DNA of 64,000 nt from Candidatus Latescibacterota bacterium (GCA_965243025.1 CBDETY010000003.1:5984001-6048000); one strand, 5' to 3'; positions 33,644 through 64,000 are shown, counted from the stretch's first letter. The notes: generated by a model from the sequence alone, not told the origin. A program made the numbers and translations.

Positions 33644-33668
33644 GGGATATATGTATTTAATTACACAA
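33644..33668. mobile_element. Candidate left terminal inverted repeat of an IS1595-family element
   Basis: GGGATATATGTATTTAATTACACAA starts exactly at the gene break, about 800 bp from an IS1595 transposase 3' end. No partner repeat found in the window. Confidence 0.5.
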
Positions 33669-33839
33669 GACAATTTTAGTAATCTGGTCCGCGAATTTAA
33701 AAGAAATCTGGTATATTATAATAGAGAAAATGCAGAGAAATGGACATCCCCCGTCCCACTGTTTAGCCGGGAGATGGGGATGTCGGCTGGCTGGCCATTT
33801 CACATGATTGCCTGCTGATTCCGGAAACCTGCCAGATTG

Positions 33840-34280
33840 GCACCCTGGGGTCGGGATCGATGCGAGCATCATTTTCTGTGTGCAGGCTGCCCTTGGGGGT
33901 GACCAGAGATCATTCCGTTTGGTCGACAAGATGGCAAGCAGGATGACTGAGGATTCCTCTGGTGCAGGCTGAGCTTACGCGCAAGAAGACGACACCCTGG
34001 ATCGGAGCCACCGCTCTGATGGAGGAGGAACCGGGATTCCTGCCCTGATCTGAATCGGCGACTCGCAGCAGCATTTCATGGCGTTCTCAAAGTCAGGCAA
34101 TCCGCATCCAGCGATGTGTCCGGATTCGCAGGTACCCCTCCCCTGAGTCGGCACCGTGGCTCGAGAAGGCCACCGCTCTGATGGAGGAGAGGATGTGCGA
34201 GCCCCCCCGGAATCTGCAAAGCCGTCGTCGTCGAGGTGAGGAGGAGATCATTCGGTTTGGTTGACAAGTTGGCAAGGCAA
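33840..34280 (+). repeat. Degenerate copy of the island non-coding repeat family, with internal duplications
   Basis: GAGATCATTC(C/G)GTTTGGT(C/T)GACAAG(A/T)TGGCAAG at 33906 and 34244; GCCACCGCTCTGATGGAGGA at 34007 and 34169; GAGTCGGCACCGTGG core at 34145. Confidence 0.65.
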
Positions 34281-34448
34281 GCTGGATCTCATTCCGGCGG
34301 CCGGTGATGCTGACCGGAGCAACGGGGCAGCAGGTCATCTTATCTTGCTGACCATTCGAGAAGATTTTCCCTGCATCCAAACCACAGTTGAGAGTCGATT
34401 CCGTTCCGCCGGCTATGCGCAAGCCGGCAGCGAGATGTCCCTTGCCGA

Positions 34449-35453
34449 CTACTCGAAAAGCTTCGCCCTTTCCTTCGACCGATGGTGCGTGTAGGGAACC
34501 GGAGGAATTTCCGTCGCCAGCAGATCCCGGTAGCTCAGCCGTTTCCCCAGCATCCCTCGAACGAGGTATTCCATCTGATCCAGGAGAGCCATTCCCCGGA
34601 TATTGTACCTGCCGACGATCTCCTTCAGGTAGCGGGAAAAATACTTGGGGGACACGTGCCGGTAGGTCCCGAAAATAACAGCCTTCAACTTGGCCCAGAA
34701 CGCTTCGATGGTGTTGGTATGGGCCTCGTCCCGGACGTATTCGCCTTGTTGGTGGTTGACGACCAGGTGCCTGCCCGGCCATTTCAAGGCCGCATAGACC
34801 GGGGCCTCGTCGGTGCACAGGGTTTCATTTTCTTCCAGCTGACCCTCTACGAAGGGGGCCACGGTCCCGTGATCGGCATGGAAGATCACCTCGGCGGCCG
34901 CCCTGCGGCTTTCCCGGTCTGCCCCTCCGAGCACCTGAACCCTGCCCTTCCTCCAGTTGCGACCGAACTTCTTGTCGGCGTGCCTCTTCTTGTCGTTTCC
35001 TCCGACCCAGGCTTCGTCCACCTCGAGGAACCTGCTGCGCAGCGGTTCGGGATCCGGCCAGCCTTCCCGGAGGCGGTGCAGCATGAACGAGGCCGACCGG
35101 TAGTTGAGTTCGAGTTTGCGGCTCAGCTGCACGGCGTTGATCCCCATCGGGTCGGACAGATACAGCCAGATGCCGAAAGCCCAATTCCGATAGGAGATCC
35201 TGGAGCGGTACAGTACCGTTCCGATGCGCACGCTGAACCGCTTTTGGCAGTCGCTGCACCGGTAGGGCATGGGTTTCCGGCCGGGACATTCCGATATCCT
35301 GCCGTCGCAGCCGCAGTGCGGACAGCGTATGAATTCGGGCAGGCCGTCTACCCTCTTCCCCCATCTGATCTTCTCGATCCATCTCTCTGCTGCTGCATTG
35401 TCTGGAAACAGTCTGTACAAATCAATCAACGAGACATCTTTACCCTTACTCAT
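34449..35453 (-). mobile_element. IS1595-family DDE transposase
   Basis: Zn ribbon CPHCG...YRCSDC; EVDEAWVGG; TDE; HTNTIEAFW; GKRLSYRDL. Confidence 0.95.
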
Positions 35454-35764
35454 CCTTACTGACCTTCGGGCCGTGGAATACCGTACTGGAGACCTGCGGC
35501 CCTCAACAAATAGTGTGATTCACGCTCCCATGGCAGTCCTTTCGGGTTTCGTGGGAAGGTGACTCTGCCGGAATGTCACCGACAGATGGGACTGGGGAAG
35601 CGGCGGTGGATCCTGCGGCTTCCCGTTGCATGTGCCTCTAGTGTAACCGGTTTGAGCTAAACAACCAAATCGGCTTCCGAGTTTTTCCAGAAAATCTCGT
35701 AATGGGGGCGGGAAACTTTAGTCTCTGCAAGCGGAGGAGGGGGGATGGTGGGGGAGGCCGGAGG

Positions 35765-36280
35765 AGGATCTCAGTCCGTATCGGGTTTCCGGGAGACTCC
35801 GGAACTGCCGGTGGGGTGGCGCTGAGGGATACCATCTGGGGGTGCTGTTCCTCGATGGGAGGGCCTTGCCGACGTGGATATCTGCATCGCCTTCGGTGCA
35901 GGCCGTCGAACGATCTGCTTCGGCTTCTTCCCTGGCATGGTCTTTGCCGAGGCCCAAGACCGGCAGGCTCCATCGGAGGATTCCCCGGTTGCCAGTCTGG
36001 ATCCCACCGGCTCAGGCGGGCGCTGGGAAAGAGGGGTATTCTCCGTAGGAGAATGCAGAGGCGGAAATCGGCACGGTGGATCGGAGTCCCCCGGCTTCTG
36101 AACGAGGGAGGGTGGTCTCAGTCCGGATCGGTGCCTGGGGGATTCAGGGTGTCGAGGGTGCTGGCTGCCCGGAACTACGAGGTGAGGGTATCCCGAAAGC
36201 CTGGCGAACCGGCAAGCCGTGAGTGCCCCCTGGCACGGTCCTTGCAGGACTACGCTGCGAAAAAGGGGGTATTCTCCGCG
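35765..36280 (+). repeat. Island non-coding repeat family, copy with about 347-bp tandem periodicity
   Basis: CTCAGTCCG(T/G)ATCGG recurs at 35770 and 36117. The block aligns by eye with the reverse complement of 62836-63260. Confidence 0.8.
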
Positions 36281-36333: not shown

Positions 36334-39300
36334 CTACTTGAGCAGCAGCATCTTCTTGACGTCGGCGAACTCACCTCCAACCTGGACGCGGTAGAAGTAA
36401 ATCCCCGACGACATGCTCTGGCCGCGGTCGTTGGTGGCGTCCCACTGGACTGCGTAGCGGCCGGCAGTCTGGCGCTCGTTGACCAGAGTCCTGACTACCT
36501 GCCCCAGCATGTTGTAAACCTCCAGCTTCACGTCACCGGCTTCCGGCAAGTCGTACTTGAGGGTGGTCTCCGGGTTGAACGGGTTCGGGAAGTTGTTCCG
36601 AAGCGCGTACACCTCGGGACGGGTCTGAATCCGAACCGAAACCGGAGTGTCCAGACTGTTCAAGCCGTAATTGCCGTCTCTCAACTCGCCGCTGAGGATC
36701 TCGATGTAGCTGTCCTCGATCTCCCTGAGAGAGCGGAATACGAGGTTCAACCCGAGATCGCCCTCGGTGCCTACGTCTCCGTAAGCGACGAGCGACACGA
36801 GACCGTCCTTGTTGGCAACCACATGACCGTCCGCGAACTCGCCGGTACCGAGGATGCTGTTCTCCACCTCGGTGCCTACGTAGGTCAGGAGCTGCGGATC
36901 GTAGCTGACGCTCAACCCGTAACCCTTGAGCTCGGCGAAGTCCTGCAGGCTGACGGCGATGGCCATCTCTTCCCCGACCCTCGGCAACTCGAGGCCGGCG
37001 TCGAGGTAGAAGCGGGCGTCGCTGTTCAGACCGGCCATGAAGTTGGGCAAGCCCTTCCCAACACCCTCGATCTCCCTGCCGAAGAAATCGGCAAAGGTGA
37101 AGAAGTCGTTGAGGTCGATCTTGTTGTTCTGACTCAGGTCGAACGCGGGCTCGAAGGATTCGTCTTCAGCCGTGAGACCGAACTGGTCCGCGAGGATGAA
37201 GAAGTCATCGAAGCCCACCTGGTTGTCCGCCCCGAACAGACCGAAGACGGCCTTGCCGTTGGAGTCGAAGACACGGTTCCGGATCGCCATCGCGGTCTTC
37301 TCCATGATGGTTTCACCGAGGTTGTCCTGGTCGAAGGGGCGGACCTGGTAGGTGTAACGAATCCCGTTGAAGACCATCTGGTCCTCGAAGGAAGTCGAGC
37401 CACCCGGAGCCTCGCCTACGACTTCGTACGCCGCGTCTCCGATCCTGCGGAACACTTTGTATCCCTTAACACCGGCAGTCGTGTAGATCTGACCGCCGAC
37501 AGCCTGTCCGACCGAAGTGGTAACCATGTGGTCATCCGGAGACTTCGCCCAGGAGACCGTTATGCTGCCACCCGCGTCGCCCGGGGTATCCAGGACCCTC
37601 ATGTAAGGAATGGCTCCCGGAGGAATGTTGTCGATCGCCCGAACGGCTTCCGACCGCACTCTCTCGGACAGGTAAGCGTTGTCTACAGCCTTCATCAAGG
37701 GAGCGATCCCCTTGGTGGAGAAGGCAATGGCCTCCGGAGTCAAGGCGGCGAACAGCGGACCGTCCGAAACCTTCGGCTGGACGGCAGACTCTTTGCTCAT
37801 CGCCATCGTCTGAGCCATCACCTCGTAAGGATTGGAGAGGCTCATCCCAGGCATGAAAGCCTGCTTGCTCGCCGGGACCACATACTCGGCGGCAACCTCG
37901 AACGCCGTGGCATCCGAATCGAGAGTCGCTACCACGACCCGCATGAGACCCGGATCGGGAACGGCGTCGACGAACGCCCACGGAATGAAAGCCATGGCGT
38001 CCTCTTCCTGCACTATGCTGCCGTCTTCCCCGAGGACGTGGGTTACGGCGATCTCACGATAAATGCGGTACCCGTCGATGATGTCGTGGTTGTCCGACGG
38101 GTCGAAGGTCAGGAGGACGAAACCGCCCTGGTCGCCATTGCCGAGCGCACCTCTGAAGTCCTCGGCGATGAGGGTATCAGGAGCATCGATCTCCTCGACC
38201 GGCGGTCCGACCGGGGGCCGTCCAGGATCGACGGGGTCACCCTCGACATTGATCACACCGGAGACGCCGTGGATGAAAGTGTCACCCTGCTGCACGATGT
38301 CTCTGACAGTAACAACCATTGTCGCAAACGATGTAGAGAGACCGGAATTGGCGATGAAGCTGCCCGTTCCGTCCCGGATGGGCACATCACCGGCCGGGAC
38401 GATTGCGCCGATCTGGTTGGCCGTGACATTCACGAAACGGCTGTCCTTTTCGCGGACGTTCCCGAACGAGTCGGCGATGCTGACCTCGACAGTGAAGTCC
38501 TCACCCCTGGTAACGGGATCCGCCGGCCCTGCAACAATGAGCTTTGCATAGGCATCGTCCTGAACCAGGACCGTGTCGCGCAACTCAAATGCACCATCGA
38601 CACTTCCGCCCTGCAAGCTGAACACGAGCTTACCGTCGGAAACGGTGTCGCGAATGGCCACCGTCCGCTTTCCGTCGGAACCCCAGCCGTCGTCGTCCAG
38701 AGTGATGACGTTGCCTCCGCCGTCCGGCTGGGAAGCTCCGGGGCTGCTCTTCTCGACCAGATCAACGCCCTGACCGCCGATTACCGTCAAAGTGGCTTCC
38801 TCCCTGTAGAGGAAGGCCGTCTTGTCGTCCTCGGTCTGGGCCTGAAGGGTTACCAACACGACCTTGCCGGCATTGATCATCAGCATCTTGTCGTCGTCAA
38901 GGTCGTCCTTGTTGTCGTCCTTGAATCCCCTCAGCTTGAACTGGTCCGACTTATCCGACTGACCAGCAATCGTGACCTTGAAGTTTTCAGCAGGCACCAA
39001 CTCGTGGTCCTCGTCGAAGGTAAAGGTGTCAGGACCGGCCTGCGTCCAGTTTCCGGCGGCGTCCCTGGCGTCGATTCGGACATAGTACATCTTGCCGTCC
39101 TCGAGACCGGTCACGCTCAACTCGGTAAAGGTATCCTTCGCCAGGCCATCGCCTCCGATGGTCAGGGTGTCGTTCTTGGAGGCATCAGCAGACCCCGGAC
39201 CGAGGTGCTTGTAGATAACGGCCAGGGTGTCAGCGTCCTTGTTCAACTCCACGCTGACATTGGCGCTGGCGGCCCCCAAGGTCCTGAGGTCATCGTCCGA

Positions 39301-41469
39301 CCCGTCCATGATCGGGAACTTGTGGGTGAAGCCGATGTCCTTGAGATCGAGGGTAACGCCGCTTCGCGTCTCCTTCGGCCCTTCGTTTCCGGCAATGTCC
39401 ATGGCGACGAACTCGAAGACGTAGTCCGTCTTCCCGTCCGACAGGAGGGCGCCTTCAAAGCCGTCTTTCCTCGCAACCGTAAACGAACCTGCCGCGTCGA
39501 ACTGGCCGGCGTTGTCGCCGCCTTTGTCCTTCCAAATGTCCACGATATCATTGGCATCGATGTCACCGGCAGGGCCAGCGGCCATCATCTTGCTCAGATC
39601 GATCGCGATTCTGCTGTCGGTCTTCAGCCCTGCATAACTGAAATCCAGCACCTTGGCATCGTCGCTGCTGCCCTCGCTCTTGATTTCCACAACCACGTCC
39701 GGCCTATCCGCAAGCCTGCTCTTCAAGGTGAGCTTGAGCTGACCGAGCGTCTCATTCGGCACGTAGACCGGCGGATTCTCGTCGGCAGGCAGGTCGACAT
39801 CCCTGTTGGGTCCACCGCCGGAAACCCTGTCCCCGCCCAGGGGGGCGTGAACGAGGGTGTCACCACCGTCATCAACCGGCTTAATCCCGGCTATGATGGT
39901 AGCTCCACCGTTCTTGATTTCCGTGACCCCGGTCCCCGCTGCGCGGGAGGCCAGGGACGGCTTCACTCCGTCAACAAGAATAGCCGTGGTGACGGAGGCA
40001 GGATCTACCCCGTCGCCATCTATCGAGAAGCTTGCAGCCGTGTTTCCGGCGCCATCCTGGATATTGGCCGTCAATACCAGCGGCGCATCCGAAAGATCCG
40101 GGTACTCGTTCTCGGCGATAGCGTCCTTGTGCTGCAGGATGGTTTTTCGGGATCCATCGGATTTCTCAAAGTACCCCGAGGCGTCCGCAGTTGATACCTT
40201 GCCTCCTGCCTTTACGACAATTGACCAATCCCCTTGAAGGTTCGTCCGGATATTGCCGTACTCGTCATCGTTCAACTCGATATAGGCAATAAGCGTATCC
40301 TGGATTCCCAGGACGATTCGATCGGTCGGAAGCTTGCCCGCCCCTATCAAGGATACCGCGTCAGCCGAATTGCCATCGGCGTCTACCGTCAAACCTCCGA
40401 GGGCGGTAAACCCTGTTGCATATCGAAGATCAGCCCCTTTGAGCTCCTTGGCGTAACCGAGACCTGCAACATCCACCGCGTGGAAGTCGCCATCCGTTCG
40501 ACCCACAAGAGCCGAAATTCCGTCTCTATCGCCATCCGAACCATCCGTTGCTGAGGCATCTGGCTCGTCAGCATCCATCTTGAACCCAAAACCGTCCTCC
40601 TTAAACGGCCTCGAGAAATGCAGATAATTCCCCTGAACCGGACGGTCGCCGTCAATCTTCATCGAGTTGTCCGAAAGGACTATGGACGAATAGGCAGTTC
40701 CATCTCTAACGACAGCCGCCGCATAAACCTCGTCGTGCTCGCCCATGATTTCAGAGCCCGTCGAGTACCATCTGATCAGGTACCTCGTATCAACGGCTAT
40801 GTTCTTGTGCTTGCTCTCCGCGATCTTGGAATCGTCGATGCCTGTCCCGGTTATAAACAGCGAGTCGGCATCGCCTACCCATTTCCTGTCCGCCTCGGGA
40901 GTGGGAGTATCACCTTCTGCAGGAATATCGTTCCGGTCCGTTCCGCGGTCCGCTGTCCGAAAGGCAGCAAACGGGTTATCGGCACCGGGAGCATCCGCGT
41001 AAGAACTGCCTCTCACCGGGGCATCAATGGTGGCCCCTGTGGTGGTGGCTTCATTGATTATGGCCGGCGAGGCGCCAACAGTGAAAGGGGCTATACTGGA
41101 TGAGGTGCCAAATGCCCCATCGAGAAATGCCGCAGCAGTTCCGCCGCCGAAATTACTGGCGTGTTGAGCAAGCCTTTCTTTGCCCCGAACGTCGTTGTCC
41201 CAACCGCTTTCAACGATCAAGGTGTCGGTCACATTCCCGTCGTTGTCTTTCTCAAGCGCAACAAGAAAGACTGCAACCTCAAGCGCCGGGTCTTCGTCGA
41301 AGTCCTGCACCGTGACATCGACCTGGAAGACGCCGTCGATTCCGACCAGCCCCCCCTTCTTGATGGTCACGCCCTCGACCGTCTGCGCCAGAAGCTCACC
41401 GCTTCCTATCGGGCCCAGACCTACGAGACCCAGGAGCGTCAGGATAATCCACTGTCTGCTACGATGCAT
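36334..41469 (-). CDS. Large secreted surface protein (1,711 aa): Ig/FN3-like domains, EF-hand/dockerin-like repeat, cohesin-like domain, C-terminal FlgD-Ig/'secretion-sorting' domain
   Basis: AGGAGG RBS; signal peptide MHRSRQWIILTLLGLVGLG; GADNQVGFDDFFILADQFG; ends PEVYALRNNFPNPFNPETT...SGIYFYRV...KKMLLLK. Confidence 0.9.
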   Translation of the reverse strand: MHRSRQWIILTLLGLVGLGPIGSGELLAQTVEGVTIKKGGLVGIDGVFQVDVTVQDFDEDPALEVAVFLVALEKDNDGNVTDTLIVESGWDNDVRGKERLAQHASNFGGGTAAAFLDGAFGTSSSIAPFTVGASPAIINEATTTGATIDAPVRGSSYADAPGADNPFAAFRTADRGTDRNDIPAEGDTPTPEADRKWVGDADSLFITGTGIDDSKIAESKHKNIAVDTRYLIRWYSTGSEIMGEHDEVYAAAVVRDGTAYSSIVLSDNSMKIDGDRPVQGNYLHFSRPFKEDGFGFKMDADEPDASATDGSDGDRDGISALVGRTDGDFHAVDVAGLGYAKELKGADLRYATGFTALGGLTVDADGNSADAVSLIGAGKLPTDRIVLGIQDTLIAYIELNDDEYGNIRTNLQGDWSIVVKAGGKVSTADASGYFEKSDGSRKTILQHKDAIAENEYPDLSDAPLVLTANIQDGAGNTAASFSIDGDGVDPASVTTAILVDGVKPSLASRAAGTGVTEIKNGGATIIAGIKPVDDGGDTLVHAPLGGDRVSGGGPNRDVDLPADENPPVYVPNETLGQLKLTLKSRLADRPDVVVEIKSEGSSDDAKVLDFSYAGLKTDSRIAIDLSKMMAAGPAGDIDANDIVDIWKDKGGDNAGQFDAAGSFTVARKDGFEGALLSDGKTDYVFEFVAMDIAGNEGPKETRSGVTLDLKDIGFTHKFPIMDGSDDDLRTLGAASANVSVELNKDADTLAVIYKHLGPGSADASKNDTLTIGGDGLAKDTFTELSVTGLEDGKMYYVRIDARDAAGNWTQAGPDTFTFDEDHELVPAENFKVTIAGQSDKSDQFKLRGFKDDNKDDLDDDKMLMINAGKVVLVTLQAQTEDDKTAFLYREEATLTVIGGQGVDLVEKSSPGASQPDGGGNVITLDDDGWGSDGKRTVAIRDTVSDGKLVFSLQGGSVDGAFELRDTVLVQDDAYAKLIVAGPADPVTRGEDFTVEVSIADSFGNVREKDSRFVNVTANQIGAIVPAGDVPIRDGTGSFIANSGLSTSFATMVVTVRDIVQQGDTFIHGVSGVINVEGDPVDPGRPPVGPPVEEIDAPDTLIAEDFRGALGNGDQGGFVLLTFDPSDNHDIIDGYRIYREIAVTHVLGEDGSIVQEEDAMAFIPWAFVDAVPDPGLMRVVVATLDSDATAFEVAAEYVVPASKQAFMPGMSLSNPYEVMAQTMAMSKESAVQPKVSDGPLFAALTPEAIAFSTKGIAPLMKAVDNAYLSERVRSEAVRAIDNIPPGAIPYMRVLDTPGDAGGSITVSWAKSPDDHMVTTSVGQAVGGQIYTTAGVKGYKVFRRIGDAAYEVVGEAPGGSTSFEDQMVFNGIRYTYQVRPFDQDNLGETIMEKTAMAIRNRVFDSNGKAVFGLFGADNQVGFDDFFILADQFGLTAEDESFEPAFDLSQNNKIDLNDFFTFADFFGREIEGVGKGLPNFMAGLNSDARFYLDAGLELPRVGEEMAIAVSLQDFAELKGYGLSVSYDPQLLTYVGTEVENSILGTGEFADGHVVANKDGLVSLVAYGDVGTEGDLGLNLVFRSLREIEDSYIEILSGELRDGNYGLNSLDTPVSVRIQTRPEVYALRNNFPNPFNPETTLKYDLPEAGDVKLEVYNMLGQVVRTLVNERQTAGRYAVQWDATNDRGQSMSSGIYFYRVQVGGEFADVKKMLLLK

Positions 41470-41519
41470 CTTTTCCTCCTTATTCAGGAATGATTTCCCT
41501 CGACAGAATTCCACGGGCC

Positions 41520-41832
41520 ATCTCCCGATTCCAACCCGAACTCTGCGGTTTGAGGGGGGCGACGAGGTGCTGGCGGAGACGGTGGAGGGGATTCCACCTG
41601 TCTACGCCGACGATACCTTGTTCGACATGTTCTCCCCACAGATTGCCGAGCTTTTGCGAAAATAGGGCGTCACTCGTCTGTACCAGCATCAGGCGGACGC
41701 CGTATCGGAGGGGATGTCGGGCGCCAATGTGGTGTTGCAGGCGCCTACCGCCAGCGGCAAGACCTTCGCCTTTCAGATTCCCCTGATGGAGCGGTTGATG
41801 CGCGAGGGAGGTCATGCCTTGATGATCTACCC
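41520..41832 (+). pseudogene. DEAD/DEAH-box helicase fragment (YprA/Hrq1-like) with internal stop
   Basis: LYQHQADA Q-motif, APTASGKT Walker A and ALMIYP; in-frame TAG at 41663; truncated after motif Ia. Confidence 0.8.
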
Positions 41833-42263
41833 GAGAAGAACCGTCTGTCTGTCCTGCTCCAGACGCTGACCCGACCCGACCTGCTGGTCCTGGACGAGGT
41901 CGGCTACATGCCCCTGGAGCGCCAGGACGCCACCTTCCTCTTCGAAGTGGTCAGCAAGCGCTACGAGGCGCTCAAGTCCATCACCCTGACCAGCAACAAG
42001 AGCTATGGCACCTGGAACGAGATCCTTCCGATCCGGTGCTGGCCACCGCGCTCCTGGATCGCTTGTTACACCACTCCTCCACCATCAACATCCGGGGGGA
42101 CAGCTACCGGCTGCGGCATCCTCGCCAGGCCGGATTCACCACCGGGGAAACCCCTCGTCAACCGGAAGGAGAAAACATGCGCTGACAGAATCCAGCCGCG
42201 TGGGGTAGAAAAGTGTCCAATTTTAAACCGTTGGAACTGTCAACTTTGAAACCGTTCTTGACA
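41833..42263 (+). mobile_element. istB: IS21-family remnant: frameshifted istB 3' half plus right end
   Basis: PDLLVLDEVGY, LTSNK and (frameshift) LLDRLLHH...IRGDSYR. End TGTCCAATTTTAAACCGTTGGAACTGTCAACTTTGAAACCGTTCTTGACA has internal repeats and a terminal CA. Confidence 0.85.
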
Positions 42264-43400: not shown

Positions 43401-43496
43401 TGGGAGTCCCGTATCGAGGCCATCCGGTGTCTGATCCCCAGCGGTTGAGAAGGAGTCGACAAGGGAAGGCGGGCCTCGTTTCACCTCATCTGGGGA

Positions 43497-43820: not shown

Positions 43821-43939
43821 CGTTACGCATCCGTTGCGGTTGTTACGTTGCCCGGTTTGTGACAGGCTGACGGCCTCGCGGACCATTGGGAAAGGGAAAC
43901 CCATCGTGGCAGCAAAGCCATACATGGCTCTTCCCGCCC

Positions 43940-44077
43940 CTATCTACGGAAAAAACGATTCAGGATGAGTGATGCCGGATTCTCCGGGAATACGACGGTG
44001 CAGACATACATCATCACCATGGCGACTACAAGGTAGCCGATGGCCAGCATTCCGAGAAGGACCGCGGTGAGGAACAT
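43940..44077 (-). CDS. 45-aa hydrophobic peptide (not in ORF track)
   Basis: GAGGCGGTGA RBS; MFLTAVLLGMLAIGYLVVAMVMMYVCTVVFPENPASLILNRFFRR. Confidence 0.55.
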   Translation of the reverse strand: MFLTAVLLGMLAIGYLVVAMVMMYVCTVVFPENPASLILNRFFRR

Positions 44078-57600: not shown

Positions 57601-60600
57601 TCGAGACCGGAGACGCCGACGATGGACCGGCTTCCGCTCCGGCCACGGGCACTCCGCAGCCGGGCCAGGTAACCAACGTGCGGGCTGCCGGCGTAGAAGC
57701 CCTCACGGTATCCTGGAAGGCAGTCCCTGACGCCACGATGTATAGAGTTTATTGGAAATCGGGCACGCAGGATTTCGACGCCTCCCGCCTAGCCGAGGTG
57801 ACCAGCGGTACACGCCATGTGATTCCGAATCTGACGGTAGGCACCCAGTACACGGTGTTTGTGGTTGCCGGCGTGGCCTCCGTCTACGGACAACCTTCAG
57901 ACGAAGTCACAGGCACGCCGACCCGGCGGCGACCATCTACACCATCAACACCCTCTACACCCACTCCTCAGCCGCCAACAACGCCGCCTGCGCAACCTAC
58001 GACGCCGCCTGTCACCAGTGCGCCCAAAGACCCGAAACCGGGCAAGGTAGTGCTCTCGTCGGTGAAGGCGGGAGCAGAAGGCGGTCAGCTTGCGGTGAAG
58101 TGGCGGGTGATGGCCAAAGCATCCGGATACAAGGTGCAGTGGAAGTCGGGAGACCAGGATTTCTCCTCGTCTCGCCAGGCCAGAGTAAGCGGAATGCTGG
58201 CGGTCAACCACGTCATTGGCGATCTGGACTATACAATCGAACACATGGTACGGGTCATCGCCTATAACCAGCACGGGGACGGCCCGCCTTCGGATAGCCG
58301 CGAGGCAACTCCGAAGCGCGGCGTACCCAAGAACAACCTCGCCATAGAAGATCCGGACGAGGCTCGCACCGTCGGTCAGGCCATTTCCCTGACGGTATCG
58401 GTGGCTGAGGAAGGCGCTCATGTCCTCGAAGTAACCGGAGGCCGGGGCGTCACGCTGAGCGGAGACGGGGTAACCGATCAGGGCGGCGGCTCGGCTCAGT
58501 TGGATGCGGACTCCTGGTCTGAAGGACAGCGCACCGTCGTCCTGAACGACACGGTAGGTCCGGACGTACTGTCCATCGTGCTCCGCAACACGGACGGTGA
58601 TTCCCTGGCCGGGCTCTCCGGGATCATGTACAACCCGGGCGAGGCCAGTCAGTTGGTGGTCACCGGATTGCCGGATACGCTGGCCGTAGGCCGGGCGTAC
58701 CGGGGCCAGGTTTCCGCTACGGATTCGTACGGTAACGTCCGCACCGAGGACCGCGAGGTCACCATATCCACCGATGCGAGGAACGTCAGTTCGTCCTCCC
58801 CGGTGGAGCTGGAGGAGGGTACCGGCGGATTCTGGGTACGCAGCGACGAGGTACCGGCCACGGCTCTGGTGCTGACGTTCGAGGATTCGGAGGACAGCGA
58901 TCTGAGCAGTTCGGTATCGGTGACGGTGCGGCCGTTGGATGCACCGGATCGAGTGGTCGCCGCCGACAACCCGGGTGATGAGGGCGGATTCGTCCTGCTC
59001 ACCTGGGATCTGTCCGACGATCATTCCATACTGGACACGTACCGCATCTTCCGGGGTGAGGGTTCGGCCAGAGAATGGGGGAGCGTCGCCGCCGCTCCCG
59101 GCGCTACGGAAGGCCGGGCAGTAGTAGCCACCCTGGACACGATGTCCTCTGTATGGGGCGTCCTGGGCCAGATCGGCGGCAGCAGCATGATGGACGATAT
59201 GGCCTGTATGGCCGACATCGTCGTGACCGGATCGGACGTGGACGGACTGGAGGTACTGGTCTGGCGCACCGGCTCGGGGAACCGGGTCAGTTCGCCCCGG
59301 TCTTCCAACATCCTCTGGAAAGGCACCACGGACGCCACCGGGCAGGTCAGCCTGAGTGTCAACAACTCGGGTCGCACCAGCTCCTATGCCGCCACCGCCC
59401 GCAGGGACGGTGAGTTGGTAGCCAGCTGGCGCGGTATACAGCTGACTCCGTCCGACTGTCCCAGTCTCGAACTGGCCATCGGGGGCGAGGCCACGGTAGG
59501 CGGAGCGACCGACCAGCGACCGAGCGTCGTTCTGATGTCGTCGATTACGCAGTCGGGTTCGGCTCGCGCCCTCGACAACACGCCGCCGGCTGCGGCGGGG
59601 TCCTTCCGGGCCGTGGATGTCCCCGACGACGACGGAGGCCAAATCCAGTTGTCGTGGACCGAGTCGGCCTCGGACGTCTCGATAACCCGCTCCGTCGAGG
59701 GCGCCGTAGGTCCGGTAACCTCGGACATGAGCCGCGGCGTGGTGGGCTATCGTATCTACCGGGAGGAGGCCGAAGGGTTTGCTCTCCTCGGGACGGTCGG
59801 TCCCGGTGTCACCGGGTTCGTGGATACGACGGCCATCACCGGAATACGGTTCACCTACGTCGTCTCCGCCTTCGATCAGGACAACGAGACCGTATCGGAG
59901 GAGGAGGAAGCCATGTCCATCCGCAACCGCGAGGAAGACGTCAACGGCAAGCTCATCCAGGGCTTGTTCGGGGCGGACAAGACCGTCGGCTTCGACGACT
60001 ACTTCCACTTCGCCGATCACTACGGTTCGTCGGTGGAGGATACGGAATGGGAACCGGCCTTCGATCTGGCCGCCAAACAGGCCGTGGACATCGACGGATA
60101 CAACGTATTCGCCGAGAACTTCGGCCGTCAGACCGCTTCGGCCGCCAAGGTCATCCCGCTCGAGCCCGGCCGGAACGAACAGACCCGGCTGGACTTCTTC
60201 GGCGGCGTACCGCTTCCGCGAGTCGGTGAAGAGTTCGTCCTGACCCTGCACCTGAGCGACTTCGGTCTGCTCAAGGGCTACGGCTTCCAGGTCGAGTTCG
60301 ACGGCGAGGAGCTGGAGGTGGTTCGCGCCGTAGCCGCCGATAACGGCCTCGGGGAGGGCATCCTCGCCAACCCGCAAGTCCTGGCCGTAGCGGAGGGGAA
60401 ACAAGCCATCGTCGCCTACGGAGACGAAGTGTCCGAAGGCACCGTGGCGGTGGAGTTGGTGTTCCGCGCCCTGCGGGAGTTCGAAGACGGTTGGATCAGG
60501 ATCACTGAGGGCCAGGTCAGAGACGGCGCCTTCGCCGTCAATCCCCTGGTCCTGCCGGCCCCGGTGCAGATGGAGACGCTACCTGAGGTCTACGCGCTCG

Positions 60601-60863
60601 GGTTCAACTACCCGAACCCCTTCAATCCGGAAACCACGATCAAGTACGCGCTGCCACAGGCGTCTGACGTGAAGCTGGTGGTATACAACTCGATTGGACA
60701 GGTGGTCCGAACCCTCGTGAACGAGCGCCAGAGCATCGGCCGCTACGCCTTCACGTGGGACGCGACCAACGACCGCGGCCAGGCGGTGTCTTCGGGAATC
60801 TACCTGTACCGCCTGCAGGCAGGAGAGTTCGCCCAAGTCAGAAAGATGCTGTTGCTCAAGTAG
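51624..60863 (+). CDS. Giant secreted adhesin-like protein (3,079 aa): 21 fibronectin type III repeats, Pro/Thr linker, Ig-like domains, EF-hand/dockerin-like, cohesin-like and FlgD-Ig/'sorting' C-terminus
   Basis: RBS plus signal peptide MKNSHQVSMKWLRGGMLVLLAISFLPRGLQA; 21 L-x-V-x-W...Y-x-V-Q-W...Y-x-V-x-V-x-A units; PSTPSTPTPQPPTTPP; ends NYPNPFNPETT...RKMLLLK. Confidence 0.92.
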   Translation: MKNSHQVSMKWLRGGMLVLLAISFLPRGLQAQFAPPTVTVKSGPEQLTVEWNEVEGATGYKVQWRNSSTEADAENTDWDASRQAMEPGTSRSSLIEDLDPAITYEVRAFAKDMYGDYSNPSNDPDGDGTPISPLTTGTPAPGQVTGVTVTVPAAAGQLTVTWDGLDVATNYKVQWRDPDEVDSWEDFEPDDDGTDPDNEESVAASTSDPLPTTYSHTITATTGGLSAENTYIVRVIATNGVDTEASNGGDGTPSDDATGRPRPGQVNGPGDATDDPLTVEPGEGKLTVKWEGVEGADEYKVQWKSGTQDWDPSNRQGMEDQDATSHEITGLTAGTEYTVRVFATNGDDTDASDGGDGTPSVEATGTPQPGQVTGVTVTSDAAAELTVSWTAVSGTGIEYKVQWRDATSVTSWDDFTPTDGTNQATATATSYTISPSTPLTVGTEYTVRVIATHDAAAAAVEDVFLADGTPSEDATGTPRPGQVQNLAQNPAPASALPGEVTVTWDRLIGADSYTVQWKLATEVNYDGTRLATIDQTPTGENPSHRITGLGSAAHTVQVYATNNDEQDGAQDGAPLELSVTPGTPGNNQVTGVTVTPGSQQLTVEWVAVTGATEYKVQWWKGDDATFDAADDDEKGDVTGIRGTRYTIRSLDEDTEYMVQVINGEDDGTASPVTDQWTKPGQVTGVTAEATSGQTGQLTVGWTVATTVGTRTDGGYKVQWRTGSENWDPDSRQVDVTGASATGTTIGDETPASDMPLGGTLYRVRVIAYNDGGDGDPSGEARATPLAAQVATPTVTPGPEELKVVWVKANGAYRYKVQWTTESGFTGFTATEGTNQKTVTDDNPEFTPEFTIEGLTGGTPYQVRVIAENESGTAAEGTVNATSGTPAPGMVGTLTVTAGSEQLTVEWDAVTGATSYKVQWRVPDENASWGADDFTAAENDNQATVTGSPLPTSYTISPTSTPAATSALSADTEYTVRVVPVVGTVDGTPSADATGRPAPGQIEDDTGTSDVDEGVTVTPLEGALKVSWGEVSGATGYTVQWKSGSDPYSRNNQADLSETEREITPLTAGVQYTVRVFAYNGDASDASDGGVGPSSDEATGTPQPGQVTGVTVTSDAAAELTVSWTAVSGTGIEYKVQWRDATSVTSWDDFTPTDGTNQATATATSYTISPSTPLTVGTEYTVRVIATHDAAAAAVEDVFLADGTPSDDETGIPRPGPVQTLAVATSPANGWAATVTWDRLTGADNGYIVQWKLATEVNYDRTRQATEPQTEETQTTVTHRITGLTAGTAYTVQVYATNDGGHGPATSPAANHPFTPVASTGNQVVGVMVTAGSEELTVTWDRVPGATGYKVQWNSDGTYDDLTVDTDDPDDRTADASGTSYTITGLTGGTTYNVQVIAVVGGENQSPSATGSTGIPKPGKVTIKAVRLGEGTLNVSWDEVTGVTGYTVQWREDSQQYSSRSRMKQPTPATATQIELDMDDLRGPGQLMPSGQKYWVQVYATNASGDGPTSDEVAGTPLPGKVDDTDENRGPVTVTRGPQQLEVGWDAVPGATGYTVQWKSGSQDFDNLLDSDDAADTRTARLGVVSSYTIENLIAGTQYTVQVFASNAGGLGAASDLQRGTPAPGTVTGVTVTAGSGALTVSWTAVPGAAGYKIQWKSGSEEYDPATREGRRTGLSYTIESLSADTEYTVQVIATLDLSNSNTPETDDSAPSDEATGTPLPGKVASVNVVAGAEKLLLSWDEVTGADGYTVQWRSGQQTFADAATDNREATDITGTRYTIEGLTADPATQYTVQVIAYNASGNGDPSDEATGTPVPVAEGQVANVMVDPGPERLAVSWSMVPGATGYKVQWKSGSETFANAATDDREEEVTGLSYTIPDLEPDTEYTVRVIAVLSTGDGPDSDEAFGTPTDRLGQVANVMVTPGPYHLSVAWDEVTGATGYKVQWKSGDEDYDETNRQALIEVGDDPGFSHTSIGLGGRTAGIEYTIQVIATIIETGDADDGPASAPATGTPQPGQVTNVRAAGVEALTVSWKAVPDATMYRVYWKSGTQDFDASRLAEVTSGTRHVIPNLTVGTQYTVFVVAGVASVYGQPSDEVTGTPTRRRPSTPSTPSTPTPQPPTTPPAQPTTPPVTSAPKDPKPGKVVLSSVKAGAEGGQLAVKWRVMAKASGYKVQWKSGDQDFSSSRQARVSGMLAVNHVIGDLDYTIEHMVRVIAYNQHGDGPPSDSREATPKRGVPKNNLAIEDPDEARTVGQAISLTVSVAEEGAHVLEVTGGRGVTLSGDGVTDQGGGSAQLDADSWSEGQRTVVLNDTVGPDVLSIVLRNTDGDSLAGLSGIMYNPGEASQLVVTGLPDTLAVGRAYRGQVSATDSYGNVRTEDREVTISTDARNVSSSSPVELEEGTGGFWVRSDEVPATALVLTFEDSEDSDLSSSVSVTVRPLDAPDRVVAADNPGDEGGFVLLTWDLSDDHSILDTYRIFRGEGSAREWGSVAAAPGATEGRAVVATLDTMSSVWGVLGQIGGSSMMDDMACMADIVVTGSDVDGLEVLVWRTGSGNRVSSPRSSNILWKGTTDATGQVSLSVNNSGRTSSYAATARRDGELVASWRGIQLTPSDCPSLELAIGGEATVGGATDQRPSVVLMSSITQSGSARALDNTPPAAAGSFRAVDVPDDDGGQIQLSWTESASDVSITRSVEGAVGPVTSDMSRGVVGYRIYREEAEGFALLGTVGPGVTGFVDTTAITGIRFTYVVSAFDQDNETVSEEEEAMSIRNREEDVNGKLIQGLFGADKTVGFDDYFHFADHYGSSVEDTEWEPAFDLAAKQAVDIDGYNVFAENFGRQTASAAKVIPLEPGRNEQTRLDFFGGVPLPRVGEEFVLTLHLSDFGLLKGYGFQVEFDGEELEVVRAVAADNGLGEGILANPQVLAVAEGKQAIVAYGDEVSEGTVAVELVFRALREFEDGWIRITEGQVRDGAFAVNPLVLPAPVQMETLPEVYALGFNYPNPFNPETTIKYALPQASDVKLVVYNSIGQVVRTLVNERQSIGRYAFTWDATNDRGQAVSSGIYLYRLQAGEFAQVRKMLLLK
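52710..55234 (+). repeat. Identical 323-bp intragenic duplication (52710-53032 = 54912-55234)
   Basis: FN3 domains 4 and 11 are identical at DNA level by eye; offset 2,202 bp. Confidence 0.9.
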
Positions 60864-60875
60864 AAGCAGGTGGGT

Positions 60876-60936
60876 AAAGAGGGGGGTTGGGAAAGGAGGC
60901 AATTTCGTCGTCTCCCTCCCACCCCTCTTTTTATTT
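60876..60936 (+). terminator. Intrinsic terminator after the FN3 gene
   Basis: AAAGAGGGG...CCCCTCTTT stem followed by TTATTT. Confidence 0.7.
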
Positions 60937-61088
60937 CAGATTTCGGGGAGATGGGATGTGATTGGGGATGATCGGCAAAACCCCTGAAACCTGGTTCTTG
61001 GGGTGGCCTCCATCGCCAGGTCAAAGGGGGAATGAACATCGGCATCCCATCTTCCTTTTTTCTTTTTCCCCTGTGAAATAAGACGAAC

Positions 61089-61298
61089 ATGGCCAAGAAG
61101 AGAAAATACAGGCGGCCAAGCCACTATCCCGAGCATTTGAGTGTAGCCGTGACCCAGGCCACACAAGAAGCCGTCGAGGAGGTCGCCGACCAGGCCGGGT
61201 GGTCGGTCGCCGAAACGGTCCGGGAGTGCATCGAGGCCGGCCTGCCGAAGGTGCGGGCCAGTGCGGGCAGGAGCAACGACATCCCCTCTTCGGCATGA
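61089..61298 (+). CDS. Ribbon-helix-helix-like DNA-binding protein, paralog 1
   Basis: HLSVAVTQATQEAVEEVADQAGWSVAETVRECIEAGL (beta-alpha-alpha pattern). Confidence 0.75.
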   Translation: MAKKRKYRRPSHYPEHLSVAVTQATQEAVEEVADQAGWSVAETVRECIEAGLPKVRASAGRSNDIPSSA

Positions 61299-61531
61299 CC
61301 CAAACCAGACCCTACCGGCGAAGGAGCCACTACCCCGGGCACCTGAGTGTATCCATGAACGGGGCCACGAGAGAAACCGTCGAGAAGATCGCCGACCAGG
61401 CCGGTTGGTCGTTGGCCGAAACAGTCCGGAAGTGCATCGAGAGCGGCCTGCCGGTGGTGAAGTTGCGGGTGAAAAGAAACTACCACCCACACCATCCCGG
61501 AAGGTGGCCCGGCTCGCCTTCCATTTCCTAG
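61295..61531 (+). CDS. Ribbon-helix-helix-like DNA-binding protein, paralog 2
   Basis: ATGA overlap; HLSVSMNGATRETVEKIADQAGWSLAETVRKCIESGL. Confidence 0.75.
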   Translation: MTQTRPYRRRSHYPGHLSVSMNGATRETVEKIADQAGWSLAETVRKCIESGLPVVKLRVKRNYHPHHPGRWPGSPSIS

Positions 61532-61549
61532 CTGAAATTCCCCTCTGGC

Positions 61550-61879
61550 ATGCCCAGGAGACCATACAGGCGAAGGATCCACTTCCCCGGCCATTTGAGG
61601 GCGTCGGTGAGCACTTCCGTACAACAAGCCGTTGAGGAGCTGGCCGAAGAGGCCGGTTGGTCCTACGCCGAGGTGGTCCGGGAGTGCATCGACGTCGGCC
61701 TGCCGGTGGTGAAGTCGCGGGTGACTACCCTTGAGGAGTTGGCCGACGAGACCGGTTGGTCCTATGCCGAGGTGGTCCGGGAGTGCATCGACGTCGGCCT
61801 GCCGGTGGTGAAGTCGCGGGTGATCTCATCCTGGTTGGATTCAGAAAAAGAAACAGAAGGGGTGGCCGGAAACCCCTGA
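61550..61879 (+). CDS. Ribbon-helix-helix-like protein, paralog 3, with 99-bp internal duplication
   Basis: EELA(E/D)E(A/T)GWSYAEVVRECIDVGLPVVKSRV twice (61632 and 61731). Confidence 0.75.
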   Translation: MPRRPYRRRIHFPGHLRASVSTSVQQAVEELAEEAGWSYAEVVRECIDVGLPVVKSRVTTLEELADETGWSYAEVVRECIDVGLPVVKSRVISSWLDSEKETEGVAGNP

Positions 61880-62243
61880 AGGGGAAAGCGGCAAGGTGTT
61901 TGGGAAACGCCTGCAATTCGAAGGTGCCGTCCTGCGGTTCCTGATTTGCAGGCGTTTTCGTTGGTACCGAAAACACCGCACCGGAACCCCGGTTCCAGAC
62001 AGGGATGGAGGAAGGGGTCCCTACAATTAACCCCGGCCCCACCAGGTGGGACCTCAACTATCCGTAACTGAAAGCGTCACCGGAGACGAGGGTTCCGGCA
62101 GGGACTACAACCAGGTCTGGAACCTTGTTTCGGCAGGAGGAGAACACGGTTCGCGAGAGCCTGCGCGAACTGCTCCACGATTTGTAATGAGAACTTTCTG
62201 ACGTTCACCGACCATTAAAGACCCTGTGTGTGGAGAAAGACCA

Positions 62244-62465
62244 ATGAACCGACGTGAACATCACGACCTGATGGCCGTGGTGATTGAATCCGGGCTTCAC
62301 CTAGAGAAACTCAACATCCTGAAAACCGAAGTGAACGGAATTGCCCCGTATCCCAAGACCCATAAGGCCCACCGGGTGGTACTGGGCTGTCTGAACATGC
62401 TGGCAGCATCCCTTGAGGAATTCAAAATGGCTGCCAGAGAGGAGATACAGATTACAGGGCCATGA
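62244..62465 (+). CDS. Hypothetical helical protein
   Basis: GGAG RBS; MNRREHHDLMAVVIESG... Confidence 0.5.
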   Translation: MNRREHHDLMAVVIESGLHLEKLNILKTEVNGIAPYPKTHKAHRVVLGCLNMLAASLEEFKMAAREEIQITGP

Positions 62466-62835
62466 CCCTCGTCCCATGGTACCGGCCGTCGATGAATACG
62501 CTCAAACCTCGTCCGGCCTCCGCCTATGGATGGAAGGTTCCACTTCTCCATAGGAGCGGTTCCTCGGCGGCTTCCCGCGCCTCCGCTTGGCTTGCTCTCA
62601 CCCGTCCGCACCTCACCCATGTCAAACGACACCCCAGGTTCCCCACTTGGCGGGGCACCCAGATTCGCGCACCCCTGACTGGATGTCGGGGTGGGGTGAA
62701 ACACCGTTACCATCAAGTGAATTCTTGCAGATTTTCGGCCAGCTTCGGATTCTCGGCGCAACCCTCGCAGTTCCACTGATTTTTTCTTTCCGCCCACGCA
62801 GCCGGTTTTTCCCACACCGCCTCCTTGAGGCAAGC

Positions 62836-63260
62836 CGTTCCTGAAATCTCCCGGAAACCCGATCTGGACTGAGGTCTCTCCTCGATCCGAGCCGGGGGCC
62901 TCGGATCCACCTTGCCGATTTCCCAAGGGGGGCAAAGGCTCCGAGAGGATCCCTCGCGAATTCTCCCCTTCCGTATTCTCCTACGGAATACCCCCCTTCT
63001 GCGCACCATGTGCCGAACGGAAGAAGATCCCAGCGGGGCAAAACGGGGAATGCTCCGATGGAGCCTGCCTTTCCCTATCACCTGTCTCGGAAAAAGACCA
63101 TGCCAGAGGGGAAGCCGAAGCAGATCCCTCGATTTTCGGCTACGAAACCCCAAACAATAGGGATCGGGTCCGCGAGGCCCTTGCTGTCGTGGAGCAAAGG
63201 TCACCAGGTCGTATCACTCAGCCACCACCTCGAACCCCTGTTCCAGAAATCTCTCTCGCT
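62836..63260 (-). repeat. Island non-coding repeat family copy (inverted)
   Basis: Reverse complement shares GATCTGCTTCGGCTTC, CTGGCATGGTCTTT, GGCAGGCTCCATCGGAG, GGGGTATT..CCGTAGGAGAAT and GGAAATCGGCA.GGTGGATC in the same order as 35790-36130. Confidence 0.8.
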
Positions 63261-63567
63261 GCATCGCTATGGATAGTCGAGGTCCCCGATGATGCGAGCG
63301 CCTCGTTCTCCCGTTCCATCTCCTCAGCCGGTTTCATCTTCTTCTCTCCTGCTCGGAGCCTGATTTCAGGCCATATCGTCCGAAATGGCCCCCCTCTGTC
63401 CTTTTCCATAAAGAAACCGCTGGAATGGACCTTATTTCCACCGATTTATCACTCATGGGGGGATCGTTTTAGATCTATATTACTGAATCCGGTTTCTCGG
63501 GTCGCAGCCGGTTTCCTCGGCGGAGTCCCTTAAATCGCGCGAACTCGGGTCCACTCTAAACGGCTAC

Positions 63568-64000
63568 ATGACAGCAGAACAACGCCAGTTTTCTGGAATA
63601 TCCCGGATTTTCAACGGCCTGTTAATCCTGGCAGCAGCCGTACCCGGCTGGTCGGCCCCGGCTCCACCGGATTGGGTCCTGATCGACCCCAGCGACGAGC
63701 CCGGGTTCTGGGTGGTGACTTGGCCTTCGGTTGCCGACGCCGACGGTTACCAGATTTACCTGCAGATCGGGGCCGCTGACGTTGAGGGGGACCAGGCCCC
63801 CGAGCCGGTCTTGGCCCGGTGGGGCTACGTCGAACAACAGGACGGGGTGATCAGGGTCAAGATCGCCGGCCTGTCTCAGGAGACGTTCTCCTTCGGGGTA
63901 GCCACCGTAAAGGACGGGGTCGAATCCGAAATCACCTGGCCGGCACAGCCTTCACAGCCTTCTGTAGCACCCACGCCACCGGATTCGGTTTGGGTCGAGG
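63568..64000 (+). CDS. Secreted protein, partial (runs off the window), starting with an FN3-like domain related to the two giant proteins
   Basis: MTAEQRQFSGISRIFNGLLILAAAVPGWSA signal; PPDWVLID..DEPGFWVVTW...DGYQIY...WGYV...IRVKIA resembles APDTLIAED..DQGGFVLLTF...DGYRIY...WAFV...MRVVVA. Confidence 0.7.
   Translation, partial: MTAEQRQFSGISRIFNGLLILAAAVPGWSAPAPPDWVLIDPSDEPGFWVVTWPSVADADGYQIYLQIGAADVEGDQAPEPVLARWGYVEQQDGVIRVKIAGLSQETFSFGVATVKDGVESEITWPAQPSQPSVAPTPPDSVWVE

Follow-up and report, generated by a model that had tools for sequence, protein, structure and literature searches.

A 40-kb element with IS1595-type transposases and its relatives in one genus of Candidatus Latescibacterota

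Insertion sequences (ISs) of the IS1595 family are usually treated as small elements with few passenger genes; members in the ISfinder tables are not known to exceed ~8 kb, and the described compound forms span a few kb. Compound transposons of large size are well documented for other IS families, and in Tn10 and Tn5 the bounding IS10 and IS50 are still independently mobile, with working inside ends. This study concerns E1, a 40,424-bp element that carries IS1595-family transposase genes and interrupts a membrane-protein gene of a Candidatus Latescibacterota bacterium (GCA_965243025.1). Its left 30 kb, from position 33644 to the end, lie in the window, the 64,000-nucleotide stretch CBDETY010000003.1:5984001-6048000 that was analysed. 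The assembly (6.8 Mb, 3 contigs) is here called G000, so that the window is G000:C3:5984001-6048000; L001 denotes C3:6048001-6062000, the DNA directly right of it, and positions given without a contig name are those of the window. A first-pass annotation, made from the window alone, had proposed that a single very large IS1595 transposon moving adhesin genes begins at 33644.

Members of the IS1595 family are described with one transposase gene in PMC8101967, and passenger-carrying “transporter IS” forms are mentioned in PMC11891212. The ISNha5 and ISNwi1-type passenger groups are those of Siguier, Gagnevin and Chandler 2009, cited within both PMC8101967 and PMC11891212. Among compound forms, transposition of Tn7052 (ISEc69, mcr-2) was shown experimentally, with 8-bp duplications (PMC7835479), and Tn7560 is reported as 5,765 bp, with its ISApl4 being 712 bp long and having 14-bp ends (PMC12561309). 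Eukaryotic Merlin transposons are described with inverted ends of 24-462 bp that start 5'-GG and with 8-9-bp duplications (PMC8101967).

E1 was found as an insertion with a duplicated target. The first-pass annotation had noticed that a gene is cut inside a codon at 33643/33644 and that foreign DNA starting GGGATATATGTATTTAATT follows; this DNA is AT-rich. The cut indeed falls within a Leu codon (CT/G) of a PPLFWW segment, and the expected Leu is confirmed by the peptide of the rejoined gene, ...WLPPLFWWLLFMM.... The gene had been called OPT-like; a Pfam scan of the truncated gene gave no OPT family at E<=0.01 and instead identified DUF6785 (profile positions 149-498 of 498) followed by DUF6784. 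Because this match starts at position 149 and full-length paralogs have ~670 aa, ~150 N-terminal codons are absent from the window, as had been estimated. The remainder lies in L001, in a piece that matches DUF6785 profile positions 1-153. With a full paralog (C3:6121939-6123948) as the query, tblastn placed aa 181-670 left of E1 and aa 21-183 at C3:6058554-6058066 on the same strand. At the left junction ACCAGAAC is directly followed by GGGATATATGTATTTAATT, and at the right junction the inverted end AATTAAATGCATATATCCC is directly followed by a second ACCAGAAC. This right end (C3:6058049-6058067, equivalent to window positions 74049-74067) is ~10 kb past the window and has 1 mismatch in 19. 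The window itself holds no second copy of the 19-mer GGGATATATGTATTTAATT on either strand with <=3 mismatches (0 expected; 100 shuffles), in keeping with the earlier report of no matching inverted end. Thus, the inverted end, the target duplicate and the gene remainder that had been predicted downstream all occur from C3:6058049 onward. In a BLAST search of 33400-36400 against the whole genome, many repeats begin exactly at 33644, and the inverted copy ends at C3:6058067.

After in-silico excision of E1 and one copy of the duplication, the restored gene gave a single alignment with a paralog over 650 aa, with 84% identity, 0 gaps and 0 stops. An empty allele, which the annotation had proposed to look for in related genomes, is present in two genomes of the same genus, G002 (C1:3796119-3796126) and G001 (C10:2165429-2165436). 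In both, the flanks are contiguous and overlap by exactly 8 bp, leaving a single ACCAGAAC copy, and synteny extends on both sides. Two public runs each contain a short-read contig of 13,443 bp that covers 32000-33672 with no differences; this is weak support, because the contigs reach only 29 nt past the junction (31 nt being taken as bridging) and the runs possibly derive from the source sample. Compared with the region, these contigs contained no empty-site joint and no full junction bridge, and they break inside the repeat at 33672. Among the public runs listed, none was of RNA, and those labelled sponge or marine metagenome had small shares (0.17-0.23), from which no habitat is concluded. 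The interrupted gene belongs to a very large paralog family in this genome: tblastn with one paralog returned 52 rows at E<=1e-3, about 48 of which cover nearly the whole length, and further examples are located at ~1121-3043 (-) in the window and at C3:6132797-6134809.

The two ends of E1 are inverted homologues. The first 140 nt of the left terminus are 92.9% identical to the inverted right terminus; the termini begin GGG(A/G), as expected from the GG-initial inverted repeats of the IS1595 family, and an alignment of 25 termini from three genomes has 46 invariant columns, mostly in the first ~100 nt. Each terminus is part of a longer module that also holds an outward-facing transposase gene, TnpT. 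The left copy, TnpT-L, is the intact IS1595 transposase that had been placed ~800 bp inside the end. The left and right modules of E1 are 82% identical over the first 341/367 nt and 84% identical over 1,910 aligned columns. Their homology extends ~800 bp past the transposase gene, and this stretch has no end motif. A genome-wide scan for the terminal motif (<=2 mismatches) gave 19 matches and no inverted partner less than 3.5 kb from any of the eight outer ends of the four elements described below, although a very short or degenerate inner end could escape it; when 33400-36400 was screened for inverted repeats of any kind, all matches were short and no better than chance. The modules therefore do not look like complete bounding ISs with their own ends. 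Having no recognisable inner ends, they look unable to move alone, and the outer ends, with one target duplication around the whole, define the mobile unit.

The transposases belong to the IS1595 family. The C-terminal catalytic domain DDE_Tnp_IS1595 (PF12762) was identified in TnpT-L (2.7e-29), in the right copy TnpT-R (2.3e-30) and in TnpC (1.9e-35), a third transposase encoded in the interior; NCBIfam NF033547, with a cutoff of 75 bits, scored 138 bits for TnpT-L and 173 bits for TnpC. The zinc ribbon Zn_ribbon_IS1595 (PF12760), a feature of all IS1595 groups except IS1016, reached 26.3 bits in TnpT-L (cutoff 25.4) and was present below the cutoff in TnpT-R and TnpC; its Cys columns are invariant in 19 copies. 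In the 19-copy alignment, TnpT and TnpC both keep D146, the D of a T/S-D motif near residue 205, H-T-N247-x-x-E250 and K257 (TnpT-L numbering), and we take these conserved D, D, N/E and K columns to be the IS1595 catalytic motif. TnpC shares ~46% protein identity with TnpT and forms a separate clade in the transposase tree. The closest annotated plasmid-borne IS1595 transposases are <=38% identical. A different IS1595-family transposase gene, 38% identical to TnpT, is present in G000 as two identical tblastn matches (C3:670411-671352 and C3:1275220-1276161) and probably represents an ordinary small IS of the family.

In its DDE_Tnp_IS1595 domain with an N-terminal zinc ribbon, its 8-bp duplication, its GG-starting ends and its internal passenger genes, E1 resembles the IS1595-family ISs of PMC8101967, as far as these are described there. 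In contrast to them, units of the E1 type measure 25-49 kb, have a transposase gene in each of their two long inverted terminal modules and a divergent third one, and contain a conserved accessory core. The idea of a single very large IS1595 transposon is supported, with refinements: E1 is a 40,424-bp unit with ends and a duplication. However, its two inverted 2.6-kb transposase modules and its third internal transposase do not make an IS-sized element with a single transposase gene, and its movement in one 40-kb step would be a further assumption. Similar to the case of Tn7052 and Tn7560, two IS1595-family copies bound the mobilised DNA and 8-bp duplications are made, although for E1 we infer the movement from the sequence. 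Those transposons measure a few kb and have a complete small IS on either side, whereas the modules of the E1 type are 2.1-2.6 kb, without inner ends and 5-19% divergent; E1 is ~7 times larger than Tn7560, and its type recurs as a family with a shared core. Like Tn10 and Tn5, E1 has inverted transposase-bearing ends, of which the outer ones are used, and one duplication around the whole unit. Unlike in these, no inner ends are detectable in the E1 family, and for this reason the unit resembles a fixed long-terminal-repeat transposon. Because large compound transposons are known from other IS families, the E1 family is not categorically new; for the IS1595 family, units of 25-49 kb raise the known size range several-fold. 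No description of IS1595-type elements of this size was found in the literature searched, whose coverage excluded most subscription journals, including the 2009 family-defining paper. Merlin elements share the transposase superfamily and the 5'-GG start, as the E1-family termini start GGG and are conserved over ~100-140 bp; they differ in being small, eukaryotic and without cargo.

A BLAST search with the first 140 nt of the end revealed 14 places in G000 at E<0.01, so that other copies of the end do occur in the assembly, as had been anticipated. Eight of these form four inverted pairs 34-49 kb apart (E1 to E4), and the remaining six are unpaired, internal or partial ends. Each pair is surrounded by a perfect 8-bp direct repeat (chance odds 4^-8 per pair). 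Together with three elements in the congeners, perfect 8-bp duplications were found in 7/7 elements with both ends identified, and the flanking repeats differ in sequence at every insertion site. In 2/2 congeners, the sequences on the two sides of E2, and likewise those of E3, share an overlap of exactly 8 bp. Those on the two sides of E4 meet to within a few bp in 2/2, with the alignments ending 10 and 4 nt before the junction. Because the congeners have empty sites, the four insertions are younger than the split from them (flanks 86-94% identical), which means at least four insertions in one genome since its separation from the nearest sequenced relatives. E1 to E4 each have an outward TnpT at each end and one TnpC between, with an extra internal copy in E4, and the terminal modules of these large members are ~2.1-2.6 kb long. 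In the transposase tree, the left copy of E1 groups with its right copy, the two copies of E3 are identical, and left and right are unresolved in E2 and E4. The tree does not separate left from right copies and so cannot date the duplication of the ends; it suggests occasional gene conversion rather than fresh IS copies. G001 also contains a small relative of 4,573 bp with one TnpT, 85-bp inverted ends of 89% identity and a nested IS5-type fragment. This shows that one TnpT and short inverted ends can suffice to leave a duplication.

The family appears to be restricted to one genus. A 102-nt terminus was found in 3/168 sampled genomes of the phylum, all in this genus. Outside the genus, the 2,157-nt module matches only inside the transposase gene, and 6/41 relatives were matched, counting G000. 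A search for the exact end motif of 22 specified bases in one-genome-per-species contigs, with a strict pattern, gave three loci only, all in G001.

It is very likely that E1 is one insertion of a genus-restricted transposon family. In the proposed mechanism, an IS1595-type DDE transposase would use the two outer GGG termini, move all that lies between them and make an 8-bp staggered cut. TnpT would bind the two outer termini; with inner ends missing, all DNA between the termini would move as one unit; and the target would be cut with the 8-bp stagger typical of IS1595/Merlin transposases. The family probably derived from an IS1595-family IS that became a long-inverted-repeat transposon. What the sequences show directly is an insertion with its duplication, the empty sites, the existence of a family and intact genes for the transposases; on this basis we infer the acting transposase, the mode (cut-and-paste or copy-and-paste) and the joint movement of the whole present 40 kb. 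Ends of ~150 bp and one transposase may suffice for this movement, and a small DDE enzyme moving large cargo, if true, may have practical use.

The two inverted transposase-bearing modules that bound E1 could also be seen as an ad hoc compound transposon of the Tn10/Tn5 type, in which two independent, complete IS1595 ISs became inverted around chromosomal DNA and their outer ends moved the segment. The single-transposase 4.6-kb relative with both ends in G001 fits this scheme, and precedents in the family are known in Tn7052 (PMC7835479) and Tn7560 (PMC12561309). We nevertheless consider this origin improbable. An inner terminus was found in 0/8 modules of the four elements, and the modules run on past the transposase gene with homology and no end motif. 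The cargo also differs from its surroundings in GC content at third codon positions (GC3), with values of 0.86-0.92 for the host genes on either side against 0.62-0.83 for the genes called in E1. Moreover, the same core occurs in all four elements and in one of G001, which independent chromosomal captures would not give. Since all the large elements except that of G002 share the TnpC core, descent from a large ancestral unit is indicated rather than repeated captures of chromosomal DNA.

Growth in place would begin with the insertion of a few-kb IS like the 4.6-kb form of G001; the 40 kb would then have accrued by nested insertion and by recombination with sister elements, and the 40-kb unit would never have transposed. 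Consistent with this, E1 and E4 are mosaics of unequal similarity, IS21 and IS630-like elements are nested inside, an internal terminus in E4 bounds a 14.9-kb sub-element, and different cargo adjoins the sharp end of the core in each element. However, perfect 8-bp duplications surround each of the six elements of 25-49 kb, which occupy six different sites in three genomes, and the TnpC region of the core is present in 5/6 of them, with the sixth (G002, ~25 kb) keeping part of the core. The four insertions in G000 are also all younger than the split from the congeners. Parallel growth in place to a similar architecture is less economical than movement of a large unit, and we regard it as an unlikely history for E1. 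Finally, short reads alone do not span E1 and their contigs break inside its end, yet a chimeric assembly at 33643/33644 or an island integrated by a site-specific recombinase can be practically dismissed, given the same 8 bp at both junctions, the exact restoration of the reading frame on excision, the empty sites in two genomes, three further elements with the same signature, and the finding of no tyrosine or serine recombinase or integrase family among the 22 E1 proteins scanned with Pfam, in which the sole rve-domain protein is the IS21 istA.

Several observations weigh against movement of E1 as one large unit driven from its outer ends. The target duplication proves the joint insertion of the two outer ends only, and not that 40 kb were present at that time. 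Unpaired termini are numerous in G002 and also occur in G000, and hence many copies are rearranged or dead. The left and right modules of the G000 elements are 5-19% divergent, apart from 610 nt that are identical in E4; because of these differences they are not fresh copies of one IS. By BLAST, the interiors of E1 and E4 are 89-97% identical and their terminal modules 71-74%; content must therefore have been exchanged between elements or between ends, and some growth may have occurred in place. Remodelling after the assembly of the element is evident from nested IS21 and IS630-like insertions and from what appears to be an internal inversion. The core is wholly absent from the 4.6-kb element of G001, and the 25-kb element of G002 keeps part of it, without TnpC or RadC. 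Because both elements still have duplications, TnpC and the core are not needed in cis.

Features of E1 and its relatives are listed in Table 1. The gene calls are rough and were made by length and third-position GC; families were assigned with Pfam, PHROGs and NCBIfam.

Table 1. Location of E1, its parts, its cargo and related elements
Feature	Location	Strand	Details and basis
Interrupted DUF6785/DUF6784 gene, 3' part	32170..33643	-	C-terminal ~490 codons; Pfam, tblastn
Interrupted DUF6785/DUF6784 gene, 5' part	L001:10068-~10707 (C3:6058068-6058707)		Outside the window; Pfam, tblastn
Target-site duplication	33636..33643 (left); C3:6058068-6058075 (L001:10068-10075) (right)		8 bp, ACCAGAAC; junction sequences
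E1	C3:6017644-6058067		40,424 bp; duplication ACCAGAAC
Left terminus	33644..33783	+	AT-rich terminal inverted repeat starting GGG; end comparison
Left terminal module	33644..36243	+	~2.6 kb; terminus, ~800 bp non-coding, outward transposase, ~800 bp upstream non-coding
TnpT-L	34449..35453	-	IS1595-family transposase, 334 aa; reads towards the left terminus, 805 bp inside the end; Pfam, NCBIfam
1726-aa protein	36334..41514	-	Type IX secretion system (T9SS)-type C-terminal sorting domain; FlgD_ig and Por_Secre_tail at residues 1642-1717; TIGR04183
IS21 fragment	41832..42263	+	3' part of istB; Pfam IstB_IS21; inverted 95.6% duplicate of L001:675-1105
Conserved core of giant elements	43058..50738	+	83-96% nt identity, BLAST of E1 vs E2, E3, E4; sharp right boundary
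XRE-type helix-turn-helix (HTH) regulator, core	45014..45301	+	96 aa; PHROG transcription-regulator families
Small conserved core open reading frames (ORFs)	45276-45500, 45774-46043		ORF conservation
SWIB/MDM2-DnaJ fusion, core	46594..47091	-	165 aa; Pfam SWIB 7e-21, DnaJ 1e-12
RadC-like JAB protein, core	47850..48287	+	145 aa; Pfam RadC 5e-42; NCBIfam TIGR00608 above cutoff
TnpC, core	48830..49933	+	Third, divergent IS1595-family transposase; Pfam, NCBIfam
Sharp core end	50710..50738	-	GCTAAAGGATAGGCGCAACGGATTGCACC read inward; ~800 bp past the tnpC stop
3162-aa protein	51375..60863	+	19 fibronectin-III stretches, T9SS-type C-terminal sorting domain; Pfam
Further cargo	60864..64000	+	Runs off the window
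IS21 copy beyond the window	istB L001:730-1434; istA L001:1495-2946	-	Pfam
C25 peptidase	L001:3394-7332	+	1312 aa, FlgD_ig tail; Pfam
TnpT-R	L001:8269-9279	+	336 aa, 90% aa identity to TnpT-L; outward; tblastn
Right terminal module	C3:~6055436-6058067		Inverted homologue of the left module, terminus at L001:10067; BLAST/alignment
E2	C3:1304677-1339122		34,446 bp; duplication GAACGAGG
E3	C3:1941107-1986021		44,915 bp; duplication CTCGTAGC
E4	C3:4234635-4283179		48,545 bp; duplication CGACGCGA
G001 large element	G001:C11:1182940-1208810		25,871 bp; duplication AACGCCAC; left TnpT mostly deleted, TnpC present
G002 large element	G002:C1		~24.9 kb; duplication GGTCGATC; several TnpT copies, without TnpC and RadC
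G001 small element	G001:C11:1961238-1965810		4,573 bp; duplication ATCGAGGC; one TnpT

The HTH regulator gene is stop-free in E2, E3, E4 and the 26-kb element of G001 and has one stop in the 25-kb element of G002; the SWIB-DnaJ gene is stop-free over the aligned part in E3, E4 and the 26-kb element. Among E1 to E4, protein identity is 97% for RadC and 77% for TnpC. The core of E1 also holds a 116-aa ORF after TnpC, and several of its small ORFs gave no family match. In all four elements the core ends at ...CCTATCCTTTAGC, with different DNA beyond in each. The core-end motif has seven copies in the genome (<=6 mismatches), one beside each TnpC gene, and genome-wide no inverted partner at <=6 mismatches; with a sharp end but no partner, the core could not be defined as a nested IS. 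The geometry of this end (transposase, ~800 bp, end) mirrors that of the terminal modules, and part of the motif looks, by eye, like the subterminal GCGCAA(G/C)GG of the termini. More speculatively, these elements might be, rather than overgrown compound transposons, giant cargo transposons that form a bacterial class of their own and maintain a specific accessory core (TnpC, a RadC-like protease, SWIB-DnaJ and the HTH regulator), in which the one-ended TnpC module is a site of cargo capture or swap and the whole is a modular shuttle for T9SS-tailed surface genes, eukaryote-like repeat genes (fibronectin-III, WD40, ankyrin and leucine-rich repeat) and defence genes within the Latescibacterota lineage. 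We hold this possibility to be tentative and on balance doubtful.

The ~15 kb of surface-protein genes reported in the window correspond to the genes of the 1726-aa and 3162-aa proteins, ~14.7 kb together, both with T9SS tails. “Adhesin-like” is a fair label for these proteins as a putative one. Outside its C-terminal sorting domain, the 1726-aa protein gave no family match, and the gene of the 3162-aa protein is 89% identical over 10.3 kb of nt to a gene of E4 that encodes a 3069-aa fibronectin-III protein. The suggestion of a transposon that moves adhesins holds insofar as E1 carries T9SS-tailed surface genes, but it is too narrow for the family, the cargo of which also includes restriction-modification, defence-like and eukaryote-like repeat genes. 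E2 encodes type I restriction-modification subunits (HsdR, HsdS), a YgjP-like peptidase, an ORC/Cdc6-like kinase protein and three WD40 proteins. E3 encodes an NYN-CSD protein, a 1556-aa NOV_C protein, an ankyrin protein and a GmrSD-C-like nuclease. In addition to the 3069-aa protein, E4 encodes a Cas3-like helicase/HD protein, CARDB/dockerin and leucine-rich repeat proteins with FlgD_ig, and a 1470-aa WD40/Big_1 protein. Cargo of these kinds (giant secreted surface proteins, a gingipain-type peptidase, repeat proteins and restriction systems) shapes the contact of a cell with its surroundings, and the family would give such genes a definite means of spreading through this phylum, of which only metagenomes are known.

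Some of the cargo bears marks of exchange and rearrangement. The 122 bp that encode the T9SS-type tail of the 1726-aa protein (36279-36400) are 100% identical to C3:4598832-4598953, which suggests recent exchange between tail-coding segments. A self-BLAST of E1 aligned the IS21 duplicate as E1 positions 8189-8620 vs 31462-31032. These inverted 433-bp istB copies (95.6%; 41832-42263 and C3:6048675-6049105) flank a ~22-kb segment with the core and the fibronectin-III gene, and this segment is inverted relative to the homologous segment of E4; it looks like an IS21-mediated inversion inside E1. In E4, an internal terminus with a degenerate TnpT lies at C3:4268279 (E4 position 33645, +) and, with the right end, bounds a 14.9-kb core-less sub-element, suggesting that E4 grew by use of its outermost ends, with the outer duplication flanking the larger unit.

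The non-coding part of the terminal modules has features of its own. The ~800-bp stretch between terminus and transposase contains direct repeats at 33906-33938/34244-34276 (33 nt, 91%) and 34007-34027/34169-34189 (21 nt, 100%), and sister elements have a ~125-nt duplicated unit in the same stretch; these repeats may be extra transposase-binding sites. An inward-pointing TGGTATAAT box, similar to an extended -10 element, lies ~66-75 nt inside every one of the 25 aligned termini (~33709-33720 in the window), and in some subfamilies of termini it is followed by a GACATCC...GGATGTC hairpin. An RNA encoded by the ends was considered and is not claimed, having neither Rfam support nor a consensus fold. 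Rfam gave nothing relevant for 33500-36400 at E<=1: the two matches, to an internal ribosome entry site model, were of chance level at 13 bits, where the gathering score is 40. For positions ~78-167 of 24 termini, RNAalifold returned no common structure (-0.05 kcal/mol, with 2 pairs and without compensatory changes), but the alignment is out of register in its variable part and the test therefore weak. Single-sequence folds of 23 distinct termini were inconsistent, with a long hairpin in some subfamilies and not in others.

Remnants of the family are found elsewhere in these genomes. In G000, the region C3:~852000-1040000 is dense in them: it contains an intact-looking left end with TnpT (852184-854482), a TnpT fragment (906808-906954), three TnpC cores (879-881, 952-954 and 1023-1025 kb), a TnpC fragment at 939.5 kb and a degenerate end at 1038114, and it may be a graveyard of further elements. 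On the closed chromosome C1 of G002, with ends at 298310-, 423202+, 958103-, 2126426+, 3233153+, 3856435- and 3949978-, most termini are unpaired. Several of the termini are near-identical to each other, suggesting a recent burst in G002 followed by large rearrangements between copies.

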